A stretch of 64,000 bases of DNA from the NCBI GenBank assembly GCA_963666515.2, contig OY762897.2, forward strand, positions 3,328,001-3,392,000, given 5' to 3'. The DNA is from Candidatus Binatia bacterium. Its GTDB lineage: Bacteria > Desulfobacterota > Binatia > UBA9968 > JAJDTQ01. Under the pieces are notes generated by a model. The model searched no databases, was not told the DNA's origin, and was given only the letters and a program-made list of their open reading frames with translations. Both the position numbers and the translations under genes were made by a program. The number at the start of each line of letters is the position of its first letter. Within the stretch, counting starts at the first letter, position 1. Below are positions 43,078 through 55,890 of this stretch, piece after piece.

Positions 43078-43117
43078 TGTGCTGTCCATATCATATGATT
43101 GACCCCGGACATTGACC

Positions 43118-45418
43118 ATGGACGTCGATCCCATCCGCTACGAGATGTTTCTGCACCGCCTGTGGGCGGTGGGCGAGGAGGGGCGCTCCACCCTCCAGCG
43201 CGTCACCGCCTCGCCCATCGTGGCCCAGGGCGGCGAGGTCATGAGCTCGTTCTACGACGCCGAGGGCAAGATGGTGCTGGCCTGCTCCGGCCACCTGCGG
43301 TTCGCCGCCGCCACCTCGGACGCCATCAAGTACCTCATCGAGTGGTACGGCGAGTCGCCGGGGTTCCACGACGGCGACCAGCTCTTCTTCAACGACCCCT
43401 ACGTGGCCGGCTCCCACACCTACGACATGATGGTGATCAAGCCCATCTTCCTGGACGGGCGCCTGATCGCCTGGATCGCCACCAGCACCCACACCGCGGA
43501 CACCGGCGGGGTGCTGCGGGGCGCGGCCCTGGAGATCTTCCACGAGGGCATCCGTATCCTGGGGGTCAAGGTGGTGGAGCGGGGCGAGTTCCGCGAGGAC
43601 GTGTTCCGCACCCTCACCGAGCAGTGCCGGGACCCGCAGTACGTGGGGCTTGACATCAAGGCCATGATCGCGGGCAACAACGTGTGCGCTTCCCGCTACC
43701 TGAGTCTGGTGGAGAAGTTCGGCCTGGAGTTCATCGAGGCGGCGGGGGAGAAGACGCTGGCGGACGCCGAGGAGATGGCGCGCGCCAAGCTGCGCTCGCT
43801 GCCCGACGGCGTCTGGCGCTCGCGGGTCTACTACTCCGCGCGCGAGGCCGACCAGTCCGACGCCGACATCATCGCCGTCATCTGCGCCGTCACCAAGAAG
43901 GGTGACTCCCTGGACATCGACCTCGACGGCACCAGCCCCCAGACCTCCGGGGACACCAACTCGACCCTGCCGAGCACGGTGGCGCACCTGAACATCGCGC
44001 TCACCAACCAGCTCTTCTGGGACGTCCCGTGGAACGACGGCAAGCTGGCGCCCATCCGCATGAGGGTGCCCGAAGGCTCGGTGCTGAACTGCACCTTCCC
44101 CGCGGCCTGCGGCTTGGCGCCCATGATCGGCGGCATGTTCGTGGCCGCGGTCAGCGAGTGCCTGGCCAAGATGCTCTATGCCGCCGGACGGAAGGACGAC
44201 GTAAACGCCGGCTGGTTCGGCGCCTGGTACTCGGGCGGCCCGGGCTTCATGTACGGCGGCCACAACCGGGAGGGGCTGGCCAACGCCCAGGGGCTCTACG
44301 ACGTGCACGGCGGCGGCCTCGGCGCCACCCCGGACCGGGACGGCGTGAACACCGGCGGCCACATGAACATCCCGTCCGGCGGCATCTCCGACATCGAGCG
44401 CATCGAGATGCAGTACCCGTTCATCTACCTGGCGCGCAGGCACGTGAAGGACGGCTCGGGCTTCGGCAAGCATCGCGGCGGCTACGGCAGCGAGCGGCTG
44501 CTGTTCGTCTACGGCTCCGCCGACGTTTCCGCCAACTACCGCCCCTACGGCGCGGTGCCCAACGGCTTCGGGCTGTTCGGCGGCTATCCCGCGGGCTTCG
44601 GCGGCAACCGGGCGCTTTACCGCACCGAGGGCCTGCTGGAGCGCCTGCGCGAGGGCGCCTACCCCACGGGCGCCGACGAGCTGCAGGGCCTGGACTGGTG
44701 CCGGCTGGACCTGCCCGAGGGCTTCCGGCCGCGGGTGCCGATCCCCGAGATGACCTTCGTCACCGACGTCACCCAGAGCGGCGGCGGGTTCGGCGACCCG
44801 CTGGAGCGGGACCCCGCGCAGGTGGAGCGTGACGTCCGCACCGGCCGTACCAGCGCCGACGTAGCCGACCGGATCTACGGCGTCAGGCTCGACGGCGACG
44901 GCCGGGTGGACGCCGCCGCCACCGCGGAGCGGCGGGAGGAACTGCGGGCCGAGCGGCTGGCCCGGGGGTCCCGTCCCGCCGGCGACGCCGGTGACGGCAG
45001 CGCCAAGGGCCTCGCCGGTGCCTCGATTTCCGCAATCGACCCAGGCGCTCCGGCCGTCGCGGCCGGCGCCCGCGCAACCGGCGCGGAGGTCATTCTGCAC
45101 GTGCACGAGTACCTCGATCTGGTCAGGGCCGGAGGCCGCCTCGTGGTGTGCTGCCGCAAGTGCGCCCGCGTGTTCTGCGACGGCGGGGAGAACTACAAGC
45201 GCGGCGCCGTCGAGATCACCATGGACCTGGAAGAAGTGGCCGGCCAGCGCGTCCCCTCCGGCGAGCCCTATCGCGGCGTGCTGCTGGGCTATGTCTGTCC
45301 CGGTTGTGCCACGCTGCTGCAGGTCGACGTCTTCTGCCCCACCCGCGACGACCAGCGGCCCCTCTGGGACATCCAGCTCGACTGCTCGACGTTCGCGTCG
45401 AGTCCCCCCAATTTGTGA
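43118..45418 (+). CDS. Hydantoinase B/oxoprolinase (acetone carboxylase alpha-like) fused to an acetone carboxylase gamma-like domain
   Basis: NDPYVAGSHTYD, GFGKHRGG, GGGFGDPLERDP; C-terminal HEYLD..CRKC...NYK...CPGCATLL. Confidence 0.85.
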   Translation: MDVDPIRYEMFLHRLWAVGEEGRSTLQRVTASPIVAQGGEVMSSFYDAEGKMVLACSGHLRFAAATSDAIKYLIEWYGESPGFHDGDQLFFNDPYVAGSHTYDMMVIKPIFLDGRLIAWIATSTHTADTGGVLRGAALEIFHEGIRILGVKVVERGEFREDVFRTLTEQCRDPQYVGLDIKAMIAGNNVCASRYLSLVEKFGLEFIEAAGEKTLADAEEMARAKLRSLPDGVWRSRVYYSAREADQSDADIIAVICAVTKKGDSLDIDLDGTSPQTSGDTNSTLPSTVAHLNIALTNQLFWDVPWNDGKLAPIRMRVPEGSVLNCTFPAACGLAPMIGGMFVAAVSECLAKMLYAAGRKDDVNAGWFGAWYSGGPGFMYGGHNREGLANAQGLYDVHGGGLGATPDRDGVNTGGHMNIPSGGISDIERIEMQYPFIYLARRHVKDGSGFGKHRGGYGSERLLFVYGSADVSANYRPYGAVPNGFGLFGGYPAGFGGNRALYRTEGLLERLREGAYPTGADELQGLDWCRLDLPEGFRPRVPIPEMTFVTDVTQSGGGFGDPLERDPAQVERDVRTGRTSADVADRIYGVRLDGDGRVDAAATAERREELRAERLARGSRPAGDAGDGSAKGLAGASISAIDPGAPAVAAGARATGAEVILHVHEYLDLVRAGGRLVVCCRKCARVFCDGGENYKRGAVEITMDLEEVAGQRVPSGEPYRGVLLGYVCPGCATLLQVDVFCPTRDDQRPLWDIQLDCSTFASSPPNL

Positions 45419-45451
45419 GACAGTTGCGAACTCCGTAAGGGAAACCCATCC

Positions 45452-47044
45452 ATGCACCGAATCATCAGCTCGCTGGCCGGAGCGCTCTTCATCGTCCTGG
45501 CCTTCGCCGCGCCGGTCCAGGCGGAGACGCTGCGGGACACGCTGGTCATGGCCAGGGACCTGGGCGACCTCATCACCCTGGATCCCGCCGAATCGTTCGA
45601 GATCTCCACCGGCGAGATCATCGCCAACATCTACGACCGGATCATGATGTTTGAGCCGGAAGACATGCGCCAGCTTGCCGGCGGCGTGACCGAGAGCCAC
45701 GAGGTGAGCGGCGACGGCAAGACCATCACCTTCCGGATACGAGACGGCCTGCGCTTCCATTCCGGCAATCCGGTGCGCCCGGAGGACGTCGAATTCTCCA
45801 TCGAGCGCGCCGTGAAGCTGGCCAAGACGCCTGCCTTCATCTTCACCCAGCTCGGCTGGAACGACGACAACGTGGAGGAACTGATCGAAGTGGTGGACGG
45901 CCGGCACGTCCGCATCACCGTCGTCGAGGGGTTCTCCCCGGTGCTGGTGCTGAACACGCTCTCCGCCGGCATCGCCTCGGTGGTCGACAAGGAACTCGTG
46001 CTCGCCCACGAGAAAGACGGCGACCTCGGCAACGGGTGGCTCAGGGCCAACAGCGCCGGCTCCGGCCCGTTCAGGCTGTACCGCTGGAAGGCCGGCGAGA
46101 CCGTGGTCCTGGACGCCAATCCCGGCTACCGCCACGGCGCGCCCGGGGTGAACCGCGTCATCCTGCGCCACGTGCCGGAGCCGGCCGCGCAGCGGCGGCT
46201 GCTCGAGAACGGCGACGTCGACATGGCGCGCAACCTCACGCCCGAACTAGTCCGGGAGATCGAGGGCCGCGCGGACCTCGCCGTCGACGGCCATCCCAAG
46301 GGCACCATCATCTACCTCGCGGCCAACGCGTCACATCCCGTCCTCGGCAAGACCCGGGTCGTGCAGGCGTTGCGTCACGCGGCGGACTACCACGGCATGG
46401 CGGATTCGTTCCTCGCCGGCCAGTTCGTGGTGCACCAGGCGTTCTGGCCGCGTGGCCTGTGGGCGGCCCACACCGGGACGCCATACCGGCTCGACCTGGC
46501 CAAGGCGAAGTCGCTGCTCGCGGCCGCGGGCCATGCCGGCGGTTTCGAGGTGCGCATCGACACGCTCACCAACCCGCCGTTCCCGGAGATCGCCCGGTCG
46601 CTGCAGGCCACTTTCGCCCAGGTGGGCATCAAGGCTCGAATCGTGACACAGGAGGGCAGGACGCTCTGGCCGAAGTACCGCACGCGCGGGCATGAGCTGA
46701 TCCTGGCGCCGTGGTCGCCGGACTACGTGGACCCGCATTCCAACGCGGGGGCCTTTGCGCACAACCCGGACAATCGGGTCGAGGCCAATCTCGCCGGCGT
46801 GGTCGCGTGGCGCAACGCGTGGGCGCGCGACGACATCAACGCAATGGCGGTGGCGGCGCGCGACGAGCGGGACCCGGAGAGGCGCGCGCAACTCTACGTG
46901 GACCTCCAGAAGCGCCTTCAAGTCGAAGGACCGTACGTGATCCTGTTCCAGCAGAACGAACAGGTCGCGCGCCGCACGAACGTCGCGGGCTTCGTCTCCG
47001 GTTCGAACTTCGACCTGGTCTACTACCGCAACGTAACCAAGTAG
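45452..47044 (+). CDS. ABC transporter peptide/nickel family substrate-binding protein
   Basis: Signal peptide; TLDPAE, FHSGNPV..EDV.FS, GSGPF. Confidence 0.9.
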   Translation: MHRIISSLAGALFIVLAFAAPVQAETLRDTLVMARDLGDLITLDPAESFEISTGEIIANIYDRIMMFEPEDMRQLAGGVTESHEVSGDGKTITFRIRDGLRFHSGNPVRPEDVEFSIERAVKLAKTPAFIFTQLGWNDDNVEELIEVVDGRHVRITVVEGFSPVLVLNTLSAGIASVVDKELVLAHEKDGDLGNGWLRANSAGSGPFRLYRWKAGETVVLDANPGYRHGAPGVNRVILRHVPEPAAQRRLLENGDVDMARNLTPELVREIEGRADLAVDGHPKGTIIYLAANASHPVLGKTRVVQALRHAADYHGMADSFLAGQFVVHQAFWPRGLWAAHTGTPYRLDLAKAKSLLAAAGHAGGFEVRIDTLTNPPFPEIARSLQATFAQVGIKARIVTQEGRTLWPKYRTRGHELILAPWSPDYVDPHSNAGAFAHNPDNRVEANLAGVVAWRNAWARDDINAMAVAARDERDPERRAQLYVDLQKRLQVEGPYVILFQQNEQVARRTNVAGFVSGSNFDLVYYRNVTK

Positions 47045-47123
47045 AGCCGGGGATTTTGCAAAGAACGGCGCTCCTGTGATAACCCCGGCTGGAGTGCCAG
47101 CAAGTCTACCACGGAGGTGAACC

Positions 47124-48137
47124 ATGCAGAGAAGAACGAGTTTGCGAAGGTCCTTTGCGATGTCGGCCGCGGCTTCGGCGGCGATGCTCCTGTGCCTGAT
47201 CGTGGGCTCCAACGCCGGCGCCCAGAAGCTGCCGGGCAAGATCACCTGGATCGTTCCCTTCGGGCTTGGGGGCGGCACCGGGACGTCGGCGCTGCTGCTG
47301 GCTCCGAAGCTTCAGAAGACGCTCGAAGGCAACGGCGTCAAGGAAGTCAAGGTGGTGAGCCTGCCGGGGGCCGGCGGCACCGTGGGGACGAAGCGGCTCT
47401 ACGGCTCGCCGGCGGACGGGAGCGTCATCGGCAGCATGCTGCCGGCGGGCGGACTGGCGCAGTCGGCGACACGGGACGTGGGCTTCGACCTGTCCAAGTT
47501 CACCTACCTGGCCAAGATTACCACCGCTCCCCGTTTCCTGTTCGTCAAGGGGGACTCCCCCATCAAGTCGCTTGACGACCTCATCGCGGAAGGAAAGAAG
47601 CGGCCCCTGAAGTTCTCCTCCGCGGGCGCGGCGTCGGCCGGATCCTTCGTGCTGGCCAACCTCATCGACAAGACCGGCATCAAGGTGAAGGACGTCACCG
47701 GGTACAAGAGCGGACGCTCGCTGGTGGTGGCGGTGGCGCGCGGCGACGTGGACACCACCATCAAGACCACCGGCGGGGTGATCACCTTCATCAAGTCCGG
47801 CGAGGTCCGAGGCCTGGTGCAGCTCTCCTCGGAGAAGGACAAGGACCCGTTCTTCCCGGACGTGCCTTCGGCCGAAGCCCTGGGACGCAAGGACCTCATG
47901 GCGGGCGGCATCCTGTACATTCTCACGGCCGCGCCCCCCAAGGTGCCGCAGGCCGTGGCGGACGTGCTGAGCAACGCCATGCACCAGGTCATCTCGGAGT
48001 CCAAGGCGGAGTTGGAGAGCAAGGCCCAGGTCATCCACTCGCCCGCCACCGGGAAAGAGACGGCCATGCTCGTCAACAACCTGATCAAGGACTACGCGAA
48101 CCTGATCGCGCTCTACAAGGCGCAGCAGAAGAAGTAG
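47124..48137 (+). CDS. tctC: Tripartite tricarboxylate transporter substrate-binding protein
   Basis: WIVPFGLGGG, PGAGG, PADG, PDVPS..LG. Confidence 0.85.
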   Translation: MQRRTSLRRSFAMSAAASAAMLLCLIVGSNAGAQKLPGKITWIVPFGLGGGTGTSALLLAPKLQKTLEGNGVKEVKVVSLPGAGGTVGTKRLYGSPADGSVIGSMLPAGGLAQSATRDVGFDLSKFTYLAKITTAPRFLFVKGDSPIKSLDDLIAEGKKRPLKFSSAGAASAGSFVLANLIDKTGIKVKDVTGYKSGRSLVVAVARGDVDTTIKTTGGVITFIKSGEVRGLVQLSSEKDKDPFFPDVPSAEALGRKDLMAGGILYILTAAPPKVPQAVADVLSNAMHQVISESKAELESKAQVIHSPATGKETAMLVNNLIKDYANLIALYKAQQKK

Positions 48138-48177
48138 GTTCGCAGCCTCGCGGGCAACGCGCCGGAAGAGATGCTCC

Positions 48178-49692
48178 GTGATTGAGGCCATCGGTGAAGC
48201 GCTGCTGAACGTTTTCGGGTTCCCGAACGTTCTGGTGGTGCTTCTCGGCGTCACGGTGAGCATGCTGTTCGGCGCCCTGCCCGGCCTGGGCGGCATCGTC
48301 ATCCTGACCCTGGCGCTGCCCATCATCATGGCGATGGAGACGCAACTGGCCATGATGGTCTTCGCCGCTTCCATCGGCGGCATCACCTTCGGCGGCTCCA
48401 TCTCCGCCATCCTGCTCAACGTGCCCGGCACCGTCGCCAACATCGCCACGGTCTTCGACGGCCACCCGCTGGCCCGGCAGGGACGCGCCGGATATGCCCT
48501 GGCCATCTCCGCCACGGCGTCTGCCCTGGGGTCGGTGTTCGGCTACGTGATCTTTCTGGTGCTGCTCCCGGTGGTGCGCTCCATCGTCTTTTCCTTCGGC
48601 CCCCCGGAGTTCTTTCTCATGGCGCTGCTGGGCATCAGCATGATCGCGTCGCTGACTCAGAAGGAGCCGGTCAAGGGGCTCATCTCCGCGGGGTTGGGAT
48701 TCCTGGTGGCCTTCATCGGATATTCTCCCATCACCGGGGACGTGAGGTACGCGTTCGACCTGGACTATCTCTGGGACGGGGTCCACACGGGCGTCATCGC
48801 CATCGGCATCTTCGCCGTTTCCGAGATGTTCTTCCTCGCGGTGAAGGGAGAGGAGCTGGTCCAGGACACCGACGTGGTGCGGCCCACGCTGAGGGACGTG
48901 CTGGACGGTGTCCGATTCGTGCTCGCCAACTTCTTCCTGCTGGTCCGGAGCGCGGTCATCGGCTGCGTGGTGGGCATCATCCCCGGCGTCGGCGCCAACG
49001 TCGCAGCCTTTCTGGCCTATGCCCAGGCGCAGGCGACCTCCAGGAACCGCGCCAACTTCGGCCGCGGCGCACCCGAGGGCGTGCTCGCGCCGGAGGCTTC
49101 CAACGACGCCAAGGACGGCGGCGCGCTGCTGCCCACGGTGGCCTTCGGCATCCCCGGGAGCGCGCCCCACGCCATCCTGCTGGTGGGGCTGCTGCTGCTC
49201 GGATTGAACCCGGGCAAGGAGCTGCTGACCACGCACCAGGCCACGGTCTTCACCCTGGTGCTGGCGCTGATCGCCGCCAACGTGTGGACCTCCATCCTGG
49301 GGCTCCTGTTCGCCAACCAGCTCGTCAAGATCACGCGCATCCGGGTCACGCTGATCATCCCCATCGTGCTGGTCATCAGCTTCGTCGGCGCCTTCGTGCT
49401 GCGGAACAATCTGCTGGACGCGTTCGCCGTGCTGGTGTTCGGGTTCATCGGCTACGGCATGAAGAAGTACAGCTACTCCTTCATCACCTTCATCCTCGCC
49501 TACGTGCTGGGAGAGATCGCCGAGGTGTCGCTGTTCCAGACGCTGCTGATATCGGACACGGGGTTCCTGATCTTCGTCACCCGCCCCATATCGCTGGTGC
49601 TGACCCTGCTCATCCTCGCGGCCCTGGGCCTTCCGCTGGTGGCGCCGATCAGGCGGGCGTGGGCGCAGCGTCAACAACCGGACACCCCTTAG
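48178..49692 (+). CDS. tctA: Tripartite tricarboxylate transporter permease
   Basis: GALPGLG, GGSISAILLNVPGT, APEASNDA, GIPGS. Confidence 0.92.
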   Translation: MIEAIGEALLNVFGFPNVLVVLLGVTVSMLFGALPGLGGIVILTLALPIIMAMETQLAMMVFAASIGGITFGGSISAILLNVPGTVANIATVFDGHPLARQGRAGYALAISATASALGSVFGYVIFLVLLPVVRSIVFSFGPPEFFLMALLGISMIASLTQKEPVKGLISAGLGFLVAFIGYSPITGDVRYAFDLDYLWDGVHTGVIAIGIFAVSEMFFLAVKGEELVQDTDVVRPTLRDVLDGVRFVLANFFLLVRSAVIGCVVGIIPGVGANVAAFLAYAQAQATSRNRANFGRGAPEGVLAPEASNDAKDGGALLPTVAFGIPGSAPHAILLVGLLLLGLNPGKELLTTHQATVFTLVLALIAANVWTSILGLLFANQLVKITRIRVTLIIPIVLVISFVGAFVLRNNLLDAFAVLVFGFIGYGMKKYSYSFITFILAYVLGEIAEVSLFQTLLISDTGFLIFVTRPISLVLTLLILAALGLPLVAPIRRAWAQRQQPDTP

Positions 49693-49698
49693 CCCCCC

Positions 49699-52600
49699 AT
49701 GACCTTCTACGCCGACCTGCACGTCCACTCCCGGTTCTCCCGCGCCACCAGCCGGAACCTGGACCTGGAGCACTTGGCCGTCTGGGCTCGCAAGAAGGGC
49801 ATCGGCGTGGTGGGCACCGGCGACTTCACCCATCCGGCGTGGCGGGCCGAGTTGAAGGAGCAGCTCGTGCCGGCGGAGCCCGGGCTGTTCCGGTTGCGCG
49901 CCGACCTGGAGCGGGCGGTCGAGCGGCAGCTTCCGCCGGCCTGCGCCGGCGGCCTCGCCGCGGTGCGGTTCATGCTGTCGGTGGAGATCTCCACCATCTA
50001 CAAGAAGGGCGACAAGACCCGGAAGATACACCACCTGGTCTACTGTCCGGACTTCGACTCGGCCGACCGGCTGGTGGCCGCCCTCTCCCGCATCGGCAAC
50101 CTGCACTCGGACGGGCGGCCGATCCTGGGGCTGGACTCCCGGCACCTGCTGGAGATGACGCTGGAGTCGGGTCCGGGCTCGTACCTGGTGCCGGCGCACG
50201 TGTGGACCCCGTGGTTCGCCGCGCTGGGCTCCAAGTCCGGCTTCGACGCCGTGGACGACTGCTACGGGGACTTGGCGCCGCACATCTTCGCGGTGGAGAC
50301 GGGGCTCTCGTCCGACCCGCCCATGAACTGGCGGGTGTCGTCCCTGGACCGCTTCCGGCTCATGTCCAACTCCGACGCCCACTCGCCCGAGAAGCTGGGG
50401 CGGGAGGTGTGCGTCTTCCACACCGAGATGGACTACTTTGCGTTGCGCCGGGCGCTGGAGACGGGCGAGGGCTATGGCGGCACCCTGGAGTTCTTTCCGG
50501 AAGAGGGCAAGTACCATCTCGACGGCCACCGCAACTGCAACGTCCGCCTGGAGCCGGACGAGACCCGCGGGCTCGACGGCCGCTGCCCGGCCTGCGGCAA
50601 GCCGCTGACCGTGGGGGTGATGCACCGGGTGGAGGACCTGGCCGACCGGGCTCACGACGAGGCGCCGCCGGACACCGCGGGGGACACCCGCGGGCTGATC
50701 CCGCTGCCGGAAATCCTGGGTGAGATCCACCGCGTGGGCCCCAAGAGCAAGCGGGTCGCGCAGGACTACGAAGGGCTGCTGGCGCGGCTCGGACCGGAGC
50801 TGCAACTCCTGAACAGCGTGCCGCTGGAAGACATCGGTCCGGTCGCGCCGTCGCTGGTGGCCGAGGCGGTGGCGCGTCTGCGGCGGCGGGAAGTGATCCG
50901 GGAGGCCGGCTACGACGGCGTGTACGGCACCATCCGCCTGTTCCGGGACGCCGAGCTGGAGCGGCGGAGCCGGGGGGCGTCGCTGTTCGGGGAGGAGACC
51001 GCGGGATCGGCGACGGCTCAGGCCGCTCCGAGTGGGATGGATTCCGGCCAGGAGATCCCCCGTCCCGGAGTCGAAGCGCCGGAACGGGCCGCTCGGGCGC
51101 ATGAACCGGCGGCGGACGATCCCGCGATTGCGCGCCGGGAGCCGCTCGATCCCGGTTCCGCACCCGCACCCCACCCGGCTGATGAGCGCCGGGACGGCGG
51201 CTCACCGGGACAACTGTCGCTCCCCGCCGACCTGTCCCCCGGCGGCCGCGATCTCCTGGCCGGCCTGGACGCGGATCAGCGACGCGCGGCGGAGATCGTC
51301 GACGGACCCTTGCTGATCGTAGCCGGTCCCGGATCGGGGAAGACCCGGACCCTGACCCGCCGCATCGCCCACCTCGTCACGAACCACGGCGCGTCCCCGT
51401 CCGGCTGTCTTGCCGTCACCTTCACCCGCCGGGCCGCGGACGAGATGCGGAGCCGTCTGCGTGAGCTCCTGCCGGACGCATGGGCCGACATCCCGCTGCA
51501 CACCTTCCATTCCCTAGGCTTGGACATCCTCCGGGAGCACTGGAACGCCGCGGGGTTGCAACGGGGTTTCCGGGTTGCCTCGGAGGCCGAGCGGCTTCGG
51601 CTGCTGCGGGACGCGCTGGGGATCTCCGAGCGGCAGGCCCGCGCGCGCCAGTCGGCCATCTCCCAGGGCAAGCGGACCGGCGCGCCGTCCGCGGACGAGA
51701 AGCTCGCGCAGGCGTGGGAGGCCTACCGGCACGAGATGGAAACACGCAACTGGTGCGACTTCGACGACCTGGTCATCCGGGCTGCGGATGCCCTGGAACG
51801 CGACCCCGGAGTCCGCGAACAGGTGCGGCAACGGTATCCGTGGGTCTGCATCGACGAGTACCAGGACGTGGACGAGCAGCAGGTCCGGTTGATCAGGCAG
51901 ATCGTCCCTCCCGACGGGAACATCTGCGCCATCGGCGACCCCGACCAAGCCATCTACGGCTTCCGGGGCGCAGACCGCCGGTTCTTCTCCGAGTTTACCG
52001 AACACTTTCCGGGCGCCCATGTGGTGCGGCTCAGCCGCAACTATCGCTCCAACTCCAACATCGTCACCCTCTCCTCGCAGGTCATGGCCGTAGCGGCCTC
52101 GGCCGGACCTTCCATCCCGGTGCTCGACGACGACCCCGACCGCGTCACCCTGCACGAAGCCCCGAGCGAGAAGGCCGAGGCCGAGTTCATCGTGCAGTCC
52201 CTGGAGCAGGCGCTGGGCGGCCACAGCTTCTTCTCCATCGACAGCGGCCGATCGACCGAGGCCCTGGGCCACGATCTCTCGTTCTCCGATTTTGCAGTAC
52301 TCTACCGCACCGAGGCCCAGGCCGCGGCACTGGTGGAGGCGCTCCAGCGCTCCGGCATGCCCTGCCAGCAGCGCTCCCACAACCCGCTGCTGGATCATCC
52401 CGGCGTCGCCGCACTGGTGGAGGCATTGGGCCGCGCCCCGGACACCGGCTCGGTGCGCAGGCGCCTCGAAGCCGCCGGCATGGACGGCGAACCGCCGGAA
52501 GCCTGCGAGCTGCTGAAACCGCTGGCCGACGCCTGCGGCGACGACCTGGAGCGCTTCCTTTCCGAACTGGCCCTGGGCAGCCAGGTGGACACCTGGGACC

Positions 52601-52950
52601 CGCGCGCCGACCGGATCTCGTTGCTGACCCTCCACGCCGCCAAGGGGCTCGAATTCCCCGTCGTCTTCATCGTGGGATGCGAGGACGGCGTGCTCCCCCT
52701 GACGTGGGGCAAGGCGGATCCGGACGACCTCGCCGAAGAGCGGCGCCTGTTCTACGTCGGCGTCACCCGCGCCATGAGCAAGCTCTACCTGTGCCGCGCC
52801 CGCAAGCGGCTCTGGCGCGGAAAGGTCCGCGAGCTGCCTGCTTCTCCTTTCCTCGCCGACATCGAGCAGCGGCTCCTGGAACGAAGCCGTGCGCGCCCCG
52901 CCGGACCGAGGACACGGGAGCAGAACAGCCAGTTGGACCTGTTCAAGTAG
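49699..52950 (+). CDS. Endonuclease Q (PHP)-UvrD/PcrA helicase fusion
   Basis: ADLHVHSRFSRATS, GTGDFTHP, ETGLSSDP, SNSDAHS, GKYHLDGHRNC, CPACG, GYDG.YG; AGPGSGKT, DEYQD, IGDPDQAIY.FRG, NYRS, TLHAAKGLEF, EERRLFYV. Confidence 0.92.
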   Translation: MTFYADLHVHSRFSRATSRNLDLEHLAVWARKKGIGVVGTGDFTHPAWRAELKEQLVPAEPGLFRLRADLERAVERQLPPACAGGLAAVRFMLSVEISTIYKKGDKTRKIHHLVYCPDFDSADRLVAALSRIGNLHSDGRPILGLDSRHLLEMTLESGPGSYLVPAHVWTPWFAALGSKSGFDAVDDCYGDLAPHIFAVETGLSSDPPMNWRVSSLDRFRLMSNSDAHSPEKLGREVCVFHTEMDYFALRRALETGEGYGGTLEFFPEEGKYHLDGHRNCNVRLEPDETRGLDGRCPACGKPLTVGVMHRVEDLADRAHDEAPPDTAGDTRGLIPLPEILGEIHRVGPKSKRVAQDYEGLLARLGPELQLLNSVPLEDIGPVAPSLVAEAVARLRRREVIREAGYDGVYGTIRLFRDAELERRSRGASLFGEETAGSATAQAAPSGMDSGQEIPRPGVEAPERAARAHEPAADDPAIARREPLDPGSAPAPHPADERRDGGSPGQLSLPADLSPGGRDLLAGLDADQRRAAEIVDGPLLIVAGPGSGKTRTLTRRIAHLVTNHGASPSGCLAVTFTRRAADEMRSRLRELLPDAWADIPLHTFHSLGLDILREHWNAAGLQRGFRVASEAERLRLLRDALGISERQARARQSAISQGKRTGAPSADEKLAQAWEAYRHEMETRNWCDFDDLVIRAADALERDPGVREQVRQRYPWVCIDEYQDVDEQQVRLIRQIVPPDGNICAIGDPDQAIYGFRGADRRFFSEFTEHFPGAHVVRLSRNYRSNSNIVTLSSQVMAVAASAGPSIPVLDDDPDRVTLHEAPSEKAEAEFIVQSLEQALGGHSFFSIDSGRSTEALGHDLSFSDFAVLYRTEAQAAALVEALQRSGMPCQQRSHNPLLDHPGVAALVEALGRAPDTGSVRRRLEAAGMDGEPPEACELLKPLADACGDDLERFLSELALGSQVDTWDPRADRISLLTLHAAKGLEFPVVFIVGCEDGVLPLTWGKADPDDLAEERRLFYVGVTRAMSKLYLCRARKRLWRGKVRELPASPFLADIEQRLLERSRARPAGPRTREQNSQLDLFK

Positions 52951-53079
52951 CTTCGGACCGGCGTGGTGCGGCTGCCGGGAGCCCGACCTGCGCGATGGCT
53001 CTTGACTCTGGCCAAGGGGTTCTGGAAAACTAGGGGTTGTGACCCCGACTGTAAGTCCAACAACGAATGAGGAGACGCC

Positions 53080-53562
53080 ATGCACGCACTCAGAATGGCC
53101 CTTGTGGGCCTCGTTGCCTTGACGCTGGCCCTTGCCGGCTGCTCTGCCAACCCCGGGAAGAAGGAAGCCGTTGGAACGTTGCTGGGCGCCATCGGCGGCG
53201 GGGTCGCCGGTGCGCAAGTAGGCAAGGGGCGCGGAAAACTCGTCGCCACGGGCATCGGCACGCTCCTCGGCGCGGCCATCGGCAACGAGATCGGCAAGTC
53301 CCTGGATCGCGCCGACCGTCTGGCCATGCAGCGCACCAACCAGCAATCGCTGGAAACGGCAAAAACCGGCACCACCAGCACCTGGAAAAACCCCGATTCC
53401 GGCAACCAGGGCACGATCACGCCGAAGAAAACTTACAAGAAGCCGGACGGAACCTACTGCCGTGAGTTCCAGCAGACCGTTACGATCGGCGGCCGTACCG
53501 AGGAAGCCTACGGCACCGCCTGCCGCCAGCCCGACGGGAGCTGGAAGCTCGTCTCGACGTAG
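53080..53562 (+). CDS. 17 kDa surface antigen-like glycine-zipper lipoprotein
   Basis: Lipobox LAGC; glycine zipper; CREF...GTACRQPDGSW. Confidence 0.9.
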   Translation: MHALRMALVGLVALTLALAGCSANPGKKEAVGTLLGAIGGGVAGAQVGKGRGKLVATGIGTLLGAAIGNEIGKSLDRADRLAMQRTNQQSLETAKTGTTSTWKNPDSGNQGTITPKKTYKKPDGTYCREFQQTVTIGGRTEEAYGTACRQPDGSWKLVST

Positions 53563-53565
53563 GCC

Positions 53566-54219
53566 GTGCCGCCCCCCGTTTCGCCCAATATCTACCACAT
53601 CGCGCATGTCGATCGGCTGCCGTCGATAATCACAGACGGCTACCTCTGGTGCGATGAAGAGATGACGCGACGAACCGAGGCCCAAGCCGACGTAGGCACG
53701 GCGATCGGAATGAGCAGCATCAAGCAGAGGCGGTTGACTGAACTCTCGCTCGACAGCCATCCGGGCCTCTACGTGGGGCAGTGTGTGCCCTTCTACTTCT
53801 GCCCGCGTTCGGTCATGCTCTACGTGATCCACCGTGCAAGCCGTGACGAGCTTTCCTATCGTGGTGGGCAAGGTCCCATATTACATCTCGAAGCCGACTT
53901 GCAGGACGCTGTTCACTGGGCTGACTCCAACAAGCGTCGCTGGGCGTTCACGCTGTCGAACGCAGGAGCGTATTACTTCGAGGACCGTGCGGACTTGGCG
54001 CAACTGGTGTTTTCCAGCCGCCAACGCCGCCCGGACTTCTGTATAGAAGCGTTGCGAGCTGACGCCGACGCGCCTGACCAACTCCCAAGGAAACGAGCGC
54101 TCCAATAGGAATTCCGCCTGTTTCGGTTCCTTGCAGTTTTGCCAATATTGAGCGTTGATGGCCGCCCAATCGAGTTCGTCCAGCCGCATCTTGCGATAAT
54201 GCCGGGATGGTACTACTGA
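53566..54219 (+). pseudogene. darT: DarT ssDNA thymidine ADP-ribosyltransferase toxin (DUF4433) disrupted by an internal inversion
   Basis: IYHIAH, CVPFYFCPRSVML, FTLSNA on the + strand; LDW....W..CKE.KQAEFL...FPW on the - strand (54183-54004); terminal PGWYY* again on + ending at 54219. Confidence 0.9.
54004..54183 (-). other. 180-bp inverted segment of darT bounded by CTGG/CCAG
   Basis: Re-inversion gives one uninterrupted 217-aa ORF from 53566 to 54219. Confidence 0.9.
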
Positions 54220-54235
54220 CGGGCGGAAGGTAAAG

Positions 54236-55303
54236 ATGCTCGAATTCAAGACGGGCGACATTCTCGCTGAAGACGCGGACGCCTTGGTGAACACGGTGAA
54301 CTGCGTGGGGGTGATGGGGCGTGGGATCGCGCTCCAGTTCAAGAATGCCTTCCCTGAGAATTTCAAGGCCTACGCCGATGCCTGTAAGCGTCACGAGGTA
54401 GAACCGGGCCGTATGTTCGTGTTCCAGACCGGCCAACTGACCAACCCGCGCTACATCATCAATTTCCCGACCAAGCGCCACTGGCGCGGAAAGAGCCGGA
54501 TGGAAGACATCGACGCAGGGCTGAAGGCGCTACGGGAGGTGATCCGTGAGAATGGCATCCACTCCATTGCCATTCCTCCACTTGGCAGCGGCCTGGGTGG
54601 ACTGAACTGGGGCAATGTGCGCTCCAGGATCGAAGAAGCGTTAAGAGATTTCGAAGACTTGCGCATCGTGGTATTCGAACCCGGCGAGGCGCCGAAGACT
54701 CAACAGATGCCCAAGCACCGGTCGGCGCCTGAGATGACGCCCGGTCGCGCGGCGCTTGTGGGGCTGATGGACCGCTATCTTGGGGGTCTTCTCGACCCGT
54801 CCGTGACCCTGCTCGAAGTCCATAAGTTGATGTATTTCATGAAGATCAGTGGAGAACCCGCTATGGACAAGCTCCGGGTGGTAAAGGGTCTCTACGGTCC
54901 TTACGCGGAGAATCTGACCCATGTGCTTCGTGAGGTTGAGGGATATTTCATCTCGGGTTATCGGGACGGGGGCGACCAGCCTGAAAAGCAGATTGAACTG
55001 GTGCCGGGCGCAGTCGCCGACGCCGACGCATTCCTGGAGAAACATCCCGACACGCGCACCCGATTCGACCGCGTAGCCGATCTGGTCGCAGGCTTCGAGT
55101 CATCTTTTGGCCTCGAGCTTCTGTCGACTGTGCATTGGGTCATCACACAGGAATCTGCCAGCAATCTGGACGACCTGATCTCGCGCGTCTATGGCTGGAA
55201 TGATCGCAAAAAGCAATTCTCGGCTCGCCAGATCGGCTTGGCTGCCGATGTCCTGGCGAAAAAGGGCTGGGTCGAACCTCTCCTCTCCGCTTCTGACTCA
55301 TGA
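54236..55303 (+). CDS. darG: DarG macrodomain antitoxin (DNA ADP-ribosylglycohydrolase)
   Basis: LVNTVNCVGVMGRGIALQFK, IINFPTKRHW, IPPLGSGLGGL, YGPYA, LELLSTVHW. Confidence 0.95.
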   Translation: MLEFKTGDILAEDADALVNTVNCVGVMGRGIALQFKNAFPENFKAYADACKRHEVEPGRMFVFQTGQLTNPRYIINFPTKRHWRGKSRMEDIDAGLKALREVIRENGIHSIAIPPLGSGLGGLNWGNVRSRIEEALRDFEDLRIVVFEPGEAPKTQQMPKHRSAPEMTPGRAALVGLMDRYLGGLLDPSVTLLEVHKLMYFMKISGEPAMDKLRVVKGLYGPYAENLTHVLREVEGYFISGYRDGGDQPEKQIELVPGAVADADAFLEKHPDTRTRFDRVADLVAGFESSFGLELLSTVHWVITQESASNLDDLISRVYGWNDRKKQFSARQIGLAADVLAKKGWVEPLLSASDS

Positions 55304-55374
55304 CCACCGACACCTCCGAACGCCGCCTACGACGGCGTGGGCTGGGCGTTCGGCCCCGCTGATCGGAAGCCCGC

Positions 55375-55890
55375 TTACAGCCCCACCGCCTTCCACACCA
55401 CCCCCTCGTGCAGGGGCGCGCCCATGACGACGATGAAGACGACGTAGACGAACGCCCAGGTGACCGCGGTGATGGAGAGGGTCATGAGCCAGCTCTCGGA
55501 GGAGCGGAGGCGCAGGAACAGGATGAGGAACAGGGGGATGGCCACGAGGTAGCCCAGGAAGTAGATCAGCGCAATCAGCAGCAGCAGCCAGGCGGCGAAG
55601 TTGAGTTCGCGGCGGTAGACGGCGCTGGAGGAGCCGGTCTCCTCGGAGGGTTCGGCGGCGCGGCCGGTATCGATGCCGAAGAGGTCGTATTCCTGCAGGA
55701 AGCTGAAGCGGCGGGCGACCGCGGGAACCATGTCGATCAGAAGCTGGAGCAGGGTGAGCAGCAGCGTGGGGACGGCGATGATGAGCGGCACCAGCCGGGC
55801 CCTCGGCTGGTAGTCCAGGGACAGAACCAGGAAGCCCAGGACCAGGACGAAGACCGCGAGAGTGAAAAGGGTCCTGTCGTTCAGCCTCAC
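55375..55890 (-). CDS. tctB: Tripartite tricarboxylate transporter TctB family protein
   Basis: ARLVP, LGY.VAIPLF, 4-5 TM helices. Confidence 0.75.
   Translation of the reverse strand: MRLNDRTLFTLAVFVLVLGFLVLSLDYQPRARLVPLIIAVPTLLLTLLQLLIDMVPAVARRFSFLQEYDLFGIDTGRAAEPSEETGSSSAVYRRELNFAAWLLLLIALIYFLGYLVAIPLFLILFLRLRSSESWLMTLSITAVTWAFVYVVFIVVMGAPLHEGVVWKAVGL

Follow-up and report, generated by a model that had tools for sequence, protein, structure and literature searches.

DarTG2 is a toxin-antitoxin and anti-phage system in which DarT, a thymidine ADP-ribosyltransferase, is toxic by modifying ssDNA and DarG reverses the modification. In the Thermus-type DarTG2 systems of known structure (7OMV-7ON0, 5M31), a DarT domain is followed by DarG, a macrodomain protein which carries Lys80 and a C-terminal DarT-binding region. 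E160 of DarT was given as the catalytic residue, or as the catalytic-null position, in the text available for PMC9967889 and PMC11543638, and Lys80 (K80) was given as catalytic in DarG in the part available for the latter. Intragenic invertons make up another class of described elements. Those of Chanin et al. (bioRxiv 10.1101/2023.03.11.532203) were found through inverted repeats reported by einverted, were attributed to invertases and, according to the available part of that preprint, typically occurred in both orientations in one and the same sample. Where inverted repeats are short, inversion could also arise by template switching or microhomology-mediated repair, as described in the accessible portions of PMC8604942 and PMC4417113.

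A locus related to all of these was present in the window (the whole stretch of DNA that was analysed, 64,000 nucleotides) from a Candidatus Binatia bacterium. Because its antitoxin is of the macrodomain type, which defines the class in the text available for PMC11543638, the locus would be a DarTG2-type toxin-antitoxin system on the chromosome, judged from its predicted products, a DarT ADP-ribosyltransferase and a macrodomain DarG. It resembled DarTG2 in domain order, in darT being upstream (here with a 16-nt spacer) and in the Glu of QAEF, which aligned with the catalytic E160. It differed in that the toxin frame was interrupted, and the encoded product would be missing its C-terminal third together with the catalytic Glu; in addition, the locus was chromosomal and syntenic among congeners, with no evident mobile island. 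The interruption was caused by an inverted segment inside darT. A recent, spontaneous and one-way inactivation of darT by inversion at 4-bp microhomology, which left an orphan-like darG, is the most likely explanation.

The inversion was wholly intragenic, the ORF was truncated and a flip restored it exactly, and in these points it was like the premature-stop invertons in the available part of the preprint of Chanin et al.; unlike them, its repeat measured just 4 bp, none of its neighbours was a candidate invertase, and the consensus contigs gave no sample with both orientations. With the spontaneous short-repeat inversions in the accessible portions of PMC8604942 and PMC4417113 it shared the exact flip of the spacer in place, the very short repeat, and the single event in one lineage; it was unlike them in that its mechanism is a proposal drawn from the signature at the junctions. 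The locus was also similar to toxin-antitoxin decay that leaves orphan antitoxins, with the toxin broken first and the antitoxin kept. Inactivation of the toxin first is the usual decay route of toxin-antitoxin loci, but where a point mutation, frameshift or deletion would be usual, the lesion here was an inversion. We know of no report of a spontaneous microhomology inversion in darT. In the titles and abstracts of the literature, no description of DarTG with phase variation or an inverton was found, and nothing relevant was found on darT pseudogenes or inversions.

The plus-strand ORF at 53566..54108 encoded 180 aa, with a GTG start and a TAG stop at 54106-54108. Its first 147 residues matched positions 1-124 of the Pfam family PF14487 (DarT, E 1.2e-33), while positions 124-187 of the same family were matched by the minus-strand translation of 54183..54004 (E 3.2e-13). 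The 5' part of darT was also matched by the DarT profile of PADLOC (E 6e-39) and aligned with chain residues 10-110 of the solved DarT 7OMV. On the plus strand the inverted segment was read as 33 unrelated codons and then the stop, and the end of the gene was PHLAIMPGWYY plus TGA at 54184-54219, which resembled the PHL.I..WYY ends of congeners. A whole-genome profile search of the genome that holds the window gave the same two pieces, and no further darT beyond those at 53566-54183. The gene structure described in the initial annotation is thus borne out by coordinates, translation and Pfam: a DarT frame up to codon 147, followed by 33 unrelated residues and the stop at 54108, the missing part on the minus strand at 54183-54004, and the true end at 54184-54219. 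The features of the locus are listed in Table 1.

Table 1. Coordinates of the darTG features in the window
Feature	Position	Strand	Evidence
17-kDa-antigen / glycine-zipper lipoprotein gene, upstream neighbour (context only)	53080..53562	+	PF16998, PF05433; syntenic in congeners
darT 5' part, codons 1-146, still in frame	53566..54003	+	GTG start; Pfam, PADLOC and structure matches
Inverted segment, DarT codons 147-206 with the catalytic Glu	54004..54183	-	Pfam; congeners; X5/X6 contigs
Terminal inverted repeat, left arm CTGG; junction microhomology	54004..54007	.	Sequence; contig joints
Premature TAG stop, product of the inversion; protein would be 180 aa	54106..54108	+	Sequence, translation
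Catalytic Glu codon (QAEF), now on the wrong strand; residue 170 once flipped	54112..54114	-	Alignment
Terminal inverted repeat, right arm CCAG	54180..54183	.	Sequence; contig joints
darT 3' end, 11 codons + TGA, separated from the 5' part	54184..54219	+	Sequence, translation
darG, intact, 355 aa: macrodomain and C-terminal DarT-binding region	54236..55303	+	Pfam, PADLOC, structures

When 54004-54183 was reverse-complemented by script, the first stop appeared after 217 codons, and the flipped frame had no other stop and no indel. The event could equally be described as a flip of 54008-54179, that is 172 bp with two 4-bp arms and 180 bp in total. The 217 codons claimed at the outset for this flip were reproduced, but the open frame was a weak argument, because this DNA is GC-rich and 7753 of 8500 arbitrary flips made around the site by script also left 53566..54219 open; ORF restoration was therefore dropped as proof. 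KQAEF stayed in frame in 2710 of the 8500 flips. Support beyond chance comes from homology, namely an unbroken profile, boundaries that were exact against relatives, and strand changes of close strains at the same bases. The inversion was exact and in place, with no bases gained or lost, since four letters fitted both joints and the flip gave 217 codons colinear with relatives, and the CTGG/CCAG boundaries named in the initial annotation agreed with both the sequence and the 4-letter joints.

The Glu of QAEF (codon 170, 54114-54112) aligned with the alanine that replaces E160 in the Thermus DarT chains 7OMV-7ON0 (E160A), which fits its earlier designation as the catalytic residue. It was not in one frame with the NAD-binding N-terminal part, being on the opposite strand, and the plus frame stopped at 54108, so the locus would be a DarTG2 locus with a toxin pseudogene rather than an active system. 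Since codons 147-206, this Glu included, are read from the other strand and translation would end after 180 codons, the toxin product is predicted to be inactive.

For darG, by contrast with the broken toxin, the gene was intact. It started with ATG at 54236, so the spacer between the two genes was 16 nt as originally stated, and a purine-rich GGAAGG stretch of its own preceded it. The product contained a Pfam Macro domain (E 1.3e-26) and covered positions 1-328 of 329 in the PADLOC DarG profile (E 1.9e-133). Its macrodomain matched the solved DarG macrodomains (E 7e-52), its C-terminal region matched the C-terminal-domain chain 7YK3_B, and Lys80 was kept within PTKRHW.

Logan contigs of four public runs (X1, X4, X5 and X6) were compared with the window; these contigs are consensus sequences, with rare variants dropped. 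X1 and X4 were different samples of one study, while X5, labelled sponge metagenome, and X6 came from two other studies. Record 5 of X1 (1773 nt, depth 5.9) and record 14 of X4 (2025 nt, depth 16) were both colinear with the window over 53800-55500, with 0 differences. Record 19 of X5 (depth 325) was on the minus strand for 53508-54007, on the plus strand for 54008-54179 and again on the minus strand for 54180-55500, and records 27 and 28 of X6 contained opposite-strand joints between 54003 and 54183 and between 54008 and 54180. At every joint of X5 and X6, four letters fitted both sides. X5 and X6 therefore carry the intact darT orientation, and their breakpoints are exactly those of the inversion. 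Among these consensus contigs, in which minority forms are invisible, only the inverted form appeared in X1 and X4 and only the intact form in X5 and X6. The inversion is present in the DNA and is not a misassembly: an assembler artefact was excluded because an independent assembler gave the inverted form in two samples, X1 and X4. These two are not fully independent, since they share a study and the assembly may itself derive from one of them. In X1 and X4, several joints of the 'skips' kind were also reported at 53829-54451, with sides of 26-41 letters at a likeness setting of 88%; short joints of this kind usually stem from other organisms or paralogues.

The direction of the change could be read from relatives, the comparison proposed along with the initial annotation. 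When four congeners (G003, G013, G020 and G021) were aligned with the window, the middle piece of darT fell on one strand and its flanks on the other, which is the intact orientation, and the darT translations of G002, G003, G016, G020 and G023 were colinear, intact DarT. Synteny around darTG was conserved with five congeners over about 20 kb, and in this stretch the middle of darT was the only nested opposite-strand piece among the matches listed. Because the close strains of X5 and X6 and the congeners have the intact orientation, the inverted state is derived. X5 differed from the window in darT at 3 of 500 and 1 of 172 bases. The inversion is recent, since the darT of X5 is nearly identical and the flipped frame has no second lesion; the inversion is the sole lesion in darT.

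A wider survey covered 160 other darT loci, 80 from metagenomes and 80 from genomes. None of the 160 had the C-terminal part on the opposite strand, with 4 of them being cut by contig ends, and the positive control, the inversion of the window's own genome (G000), was detected at E 7e-29. The loci comprised 149 which were full length and open, 4 with one stop, 1 frameshifted and the 4 cut by contig ends; 2 of the 160 had no detectable end, and one of these 2 also had a stop. The metagenome scan found no relative above 75% protein identity and no further near-identical strains.

Within the genus, 28 genomes were surveyed and DarT matches were found in 14, at 18 loci, 7 of which were broken, the inverted one of the window among them. 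Both darT loci of G013 (L006/L015 and L024) were broken by nonsense codons, TGA and TAG, and G021 (L004, L028, L029) had two copies that share one internal deletion of roughly 376 bp. G011 (L021) and G042 (L022) had frameshifted darT; sequencing errors could account for these two, in which case fewer loci would count as decayed. The matched darG parts were open and kept the PTK motif next to the broken darT of G000, of both G013 loci and of both G021 copies, while the darG of G011 had 2 stops. Two to three DarTG subfamilies coexisted in the genus.

Several other explanations were weighed against these data. One is that the inverted form is a chimera made during library preparation, amplification or assembly and absent from cells. 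Template-switch chimeras, too, use short microhomology, so the short microhomology at the junctions would also be expected of them, and the genome was metagenome-assembled, with modest depth in the runs (5.9 and 16). However, the Logan contigs came from an independent assembler and gave the inverted form in two samples with 0 differences over 1.7 kb, 4 bp is far under any assembly word size, and no other nested opposite-strand piece was present over the 20 kb of synteny among the matches listed. Such an artefact is extremely unlikely, and the earlier judgement against misassembly holds, with the contigs of X1 and X4 being colinear. Another explanation is a standing polymorphism, in which broken and intact darT co-circulate in a host-associated population and are swapped by homologous recombination, so that toxin status would vary at the population level without site-specific switching. 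X5 differed from the window at 4 of 672 bases in darT (53508-54180) and at 86 of 2275 in the flanks (52581-53537 with the lipoprotein gene, and 54180-55500 with darG), and the contrast (Fisher exact p = 2e-6) suggests a recent exchange, or a recombination tract covering darT. X6 gave no such contrast (28/614 against 74/2027, p = 0.34). Against exchange, the two alleles were not seen in one sample among the consensus contigs, and the low divergence of darT would fit strong constraint on darT or a mosaic contig as well. Allele exchange is unlikely; it departs from the spontaneous inversion only in the events after the mutation arose.

The initial annotation had left two readings, a recent one-step inactivation and a reversible inverton. 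The former gained from the inverted form being real in X1 and X4, from intact relatives and from the lack of a second lesion, while the latter lost ground. If it were an inverton, the 180 bp would flip to and fro as a premature-stop phase switch, and a subpopulation would be armed with DarT. Both orientations did occur among strains 96-99% identical at the locus, neither with another lesion, and intragenic invertons introducing premature stops are described in the available part of bioRxiv 10.1101/2023.03.11.532203. There, however, the inversions are put down to invertases that recombine inverted repeats. The terminal inverted repeat CTGG/CCAG was just 4 bp, the next bases inward and outward being unpaired. 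At the homologous sites of congeners, CTGG was present on the left only in G003 and G013, and CCAG on the right only in G021; since the arms differ among congeners, there is no conserved recombination site. Two longer inverted repeats, I1 (21 nt, 76%) and I2 (20 nt, 75%), were tried as recombination sites and rejected, as neither brackets the inverted segment and their scores resembled those of the other 17 inverted-repeat pairs in the same 801 bases. No serine recombinase (PF00239, resolvase/invertase) was matched in the genome, while the control was matched in 12 of 14 genomes. Three tyrosine recombinases (PF00589) were found in the genome and none within the 64-kb window, in agreement with the original remark that no invertase is encoded nearby. 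The nearest one (G000:C1:3314676-3315236), which lies about 13 kb ahead of the window and about 67 kb from darT, was the third and weakest match (E 4e-14); the other two (E 6e-50 and 1e-45) would, at a guess, be the housekeeping Xer pair. No opposite-strand joint was seen at the junctions in the consensus contigs of X1 and X4, which hide minor forms. With a 4-bp unconserved repeat, no serine recombinase, no tyrosine recombinase in the window and no recurrence among 160 loci, a programmed switch at darT is not supported, and a reversible inverton is very unlikely. In a broader form, the 180-bp segment would be a true ON/OFF element that controls a toxin used for defence in a Binatia symbiont of sponges, working by unrecognised or enzyme-independent flipping or by population-level recombination between co-resident strains; this has its place because near-identical strains show both orientations with no other lesion and the darT of X5 is far less diverged than its flanks, and it is quite unlikely.

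Under the preferred explanation, spontaneous inversion at microhomology, one event would have flipped 172 bp between the CTGG and CCAG arms, 180 bp in all. Codons 147-206, the catalytic Glu among them, ended up on the opposite strand, and the stop after 180 codons was created. The route would be enzyme-independent: the template may have switched from one 4-bp arm to the other during replication, or breaks may have been misrepaired by microhomology. The 4-bp repeat was taken as a microhomology signature because, among 180-bp segments drawn at random from the window, just 0.6% had a terminal inverted repeat of at least 4 bp. The outcome would be a one-way loss of function, part of the general decay of darT in the genus and not a programmed switch. 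This reading is bounded by the fact that close strains differ in orientation without other damage, and a phase-variable element would look alike; meanwhile X1 and X4, with a depth of 6-16 and consensus sequence only, would let minority molecules of intact orientation escape view.

If spontaneous inversion is true, darT of the window would be an ordinary but unusually clean young toxin pseudogene, formed in one micro-inversion step while sister strains keep the ancestral allele, and it would add to a pattern in one symbiont genus in which darT is often lost and darG is kept. For annotation, a split or 'truncated' DarT together with an antisense ORF can conceal a micro-inversion. If both orientations were present in one population, the toxin gene of a DarTG pair would be under the control of an inversion switch, a far weightier result for which no prior description was found.

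The genes around darTG encoded TctA, a UvrD-type helicase, the lipoprotein, TctB and a carboxylase, and among the ten ORFs scanned there were no mobile-element genes. Three long minus-strand ORFs at 43091-48515 (1026, 315 and 469 aa) had no Pfam match at E <= 1e-5, and could be genes that lack annotation, or antisense frames open by chance in this GC-rich DNA. Directly upstream, a 1083-aa ORF (49699-52950) contained the UvrD-type helicase in its C-terminal half, while about 520 N-terminal residues were without a Pfam match at E <= 1e-5; among the PADLOC profiles, those of GajB-like helicases fitted it best (E 3e-83). The GTG of darT was 3 nt past the stop of the lipoprotein gene (53563-53568), and congeners had Met where darT of the window began with GTG (TMPPP against AVPPP in the window), so GTG may be a weaker start.
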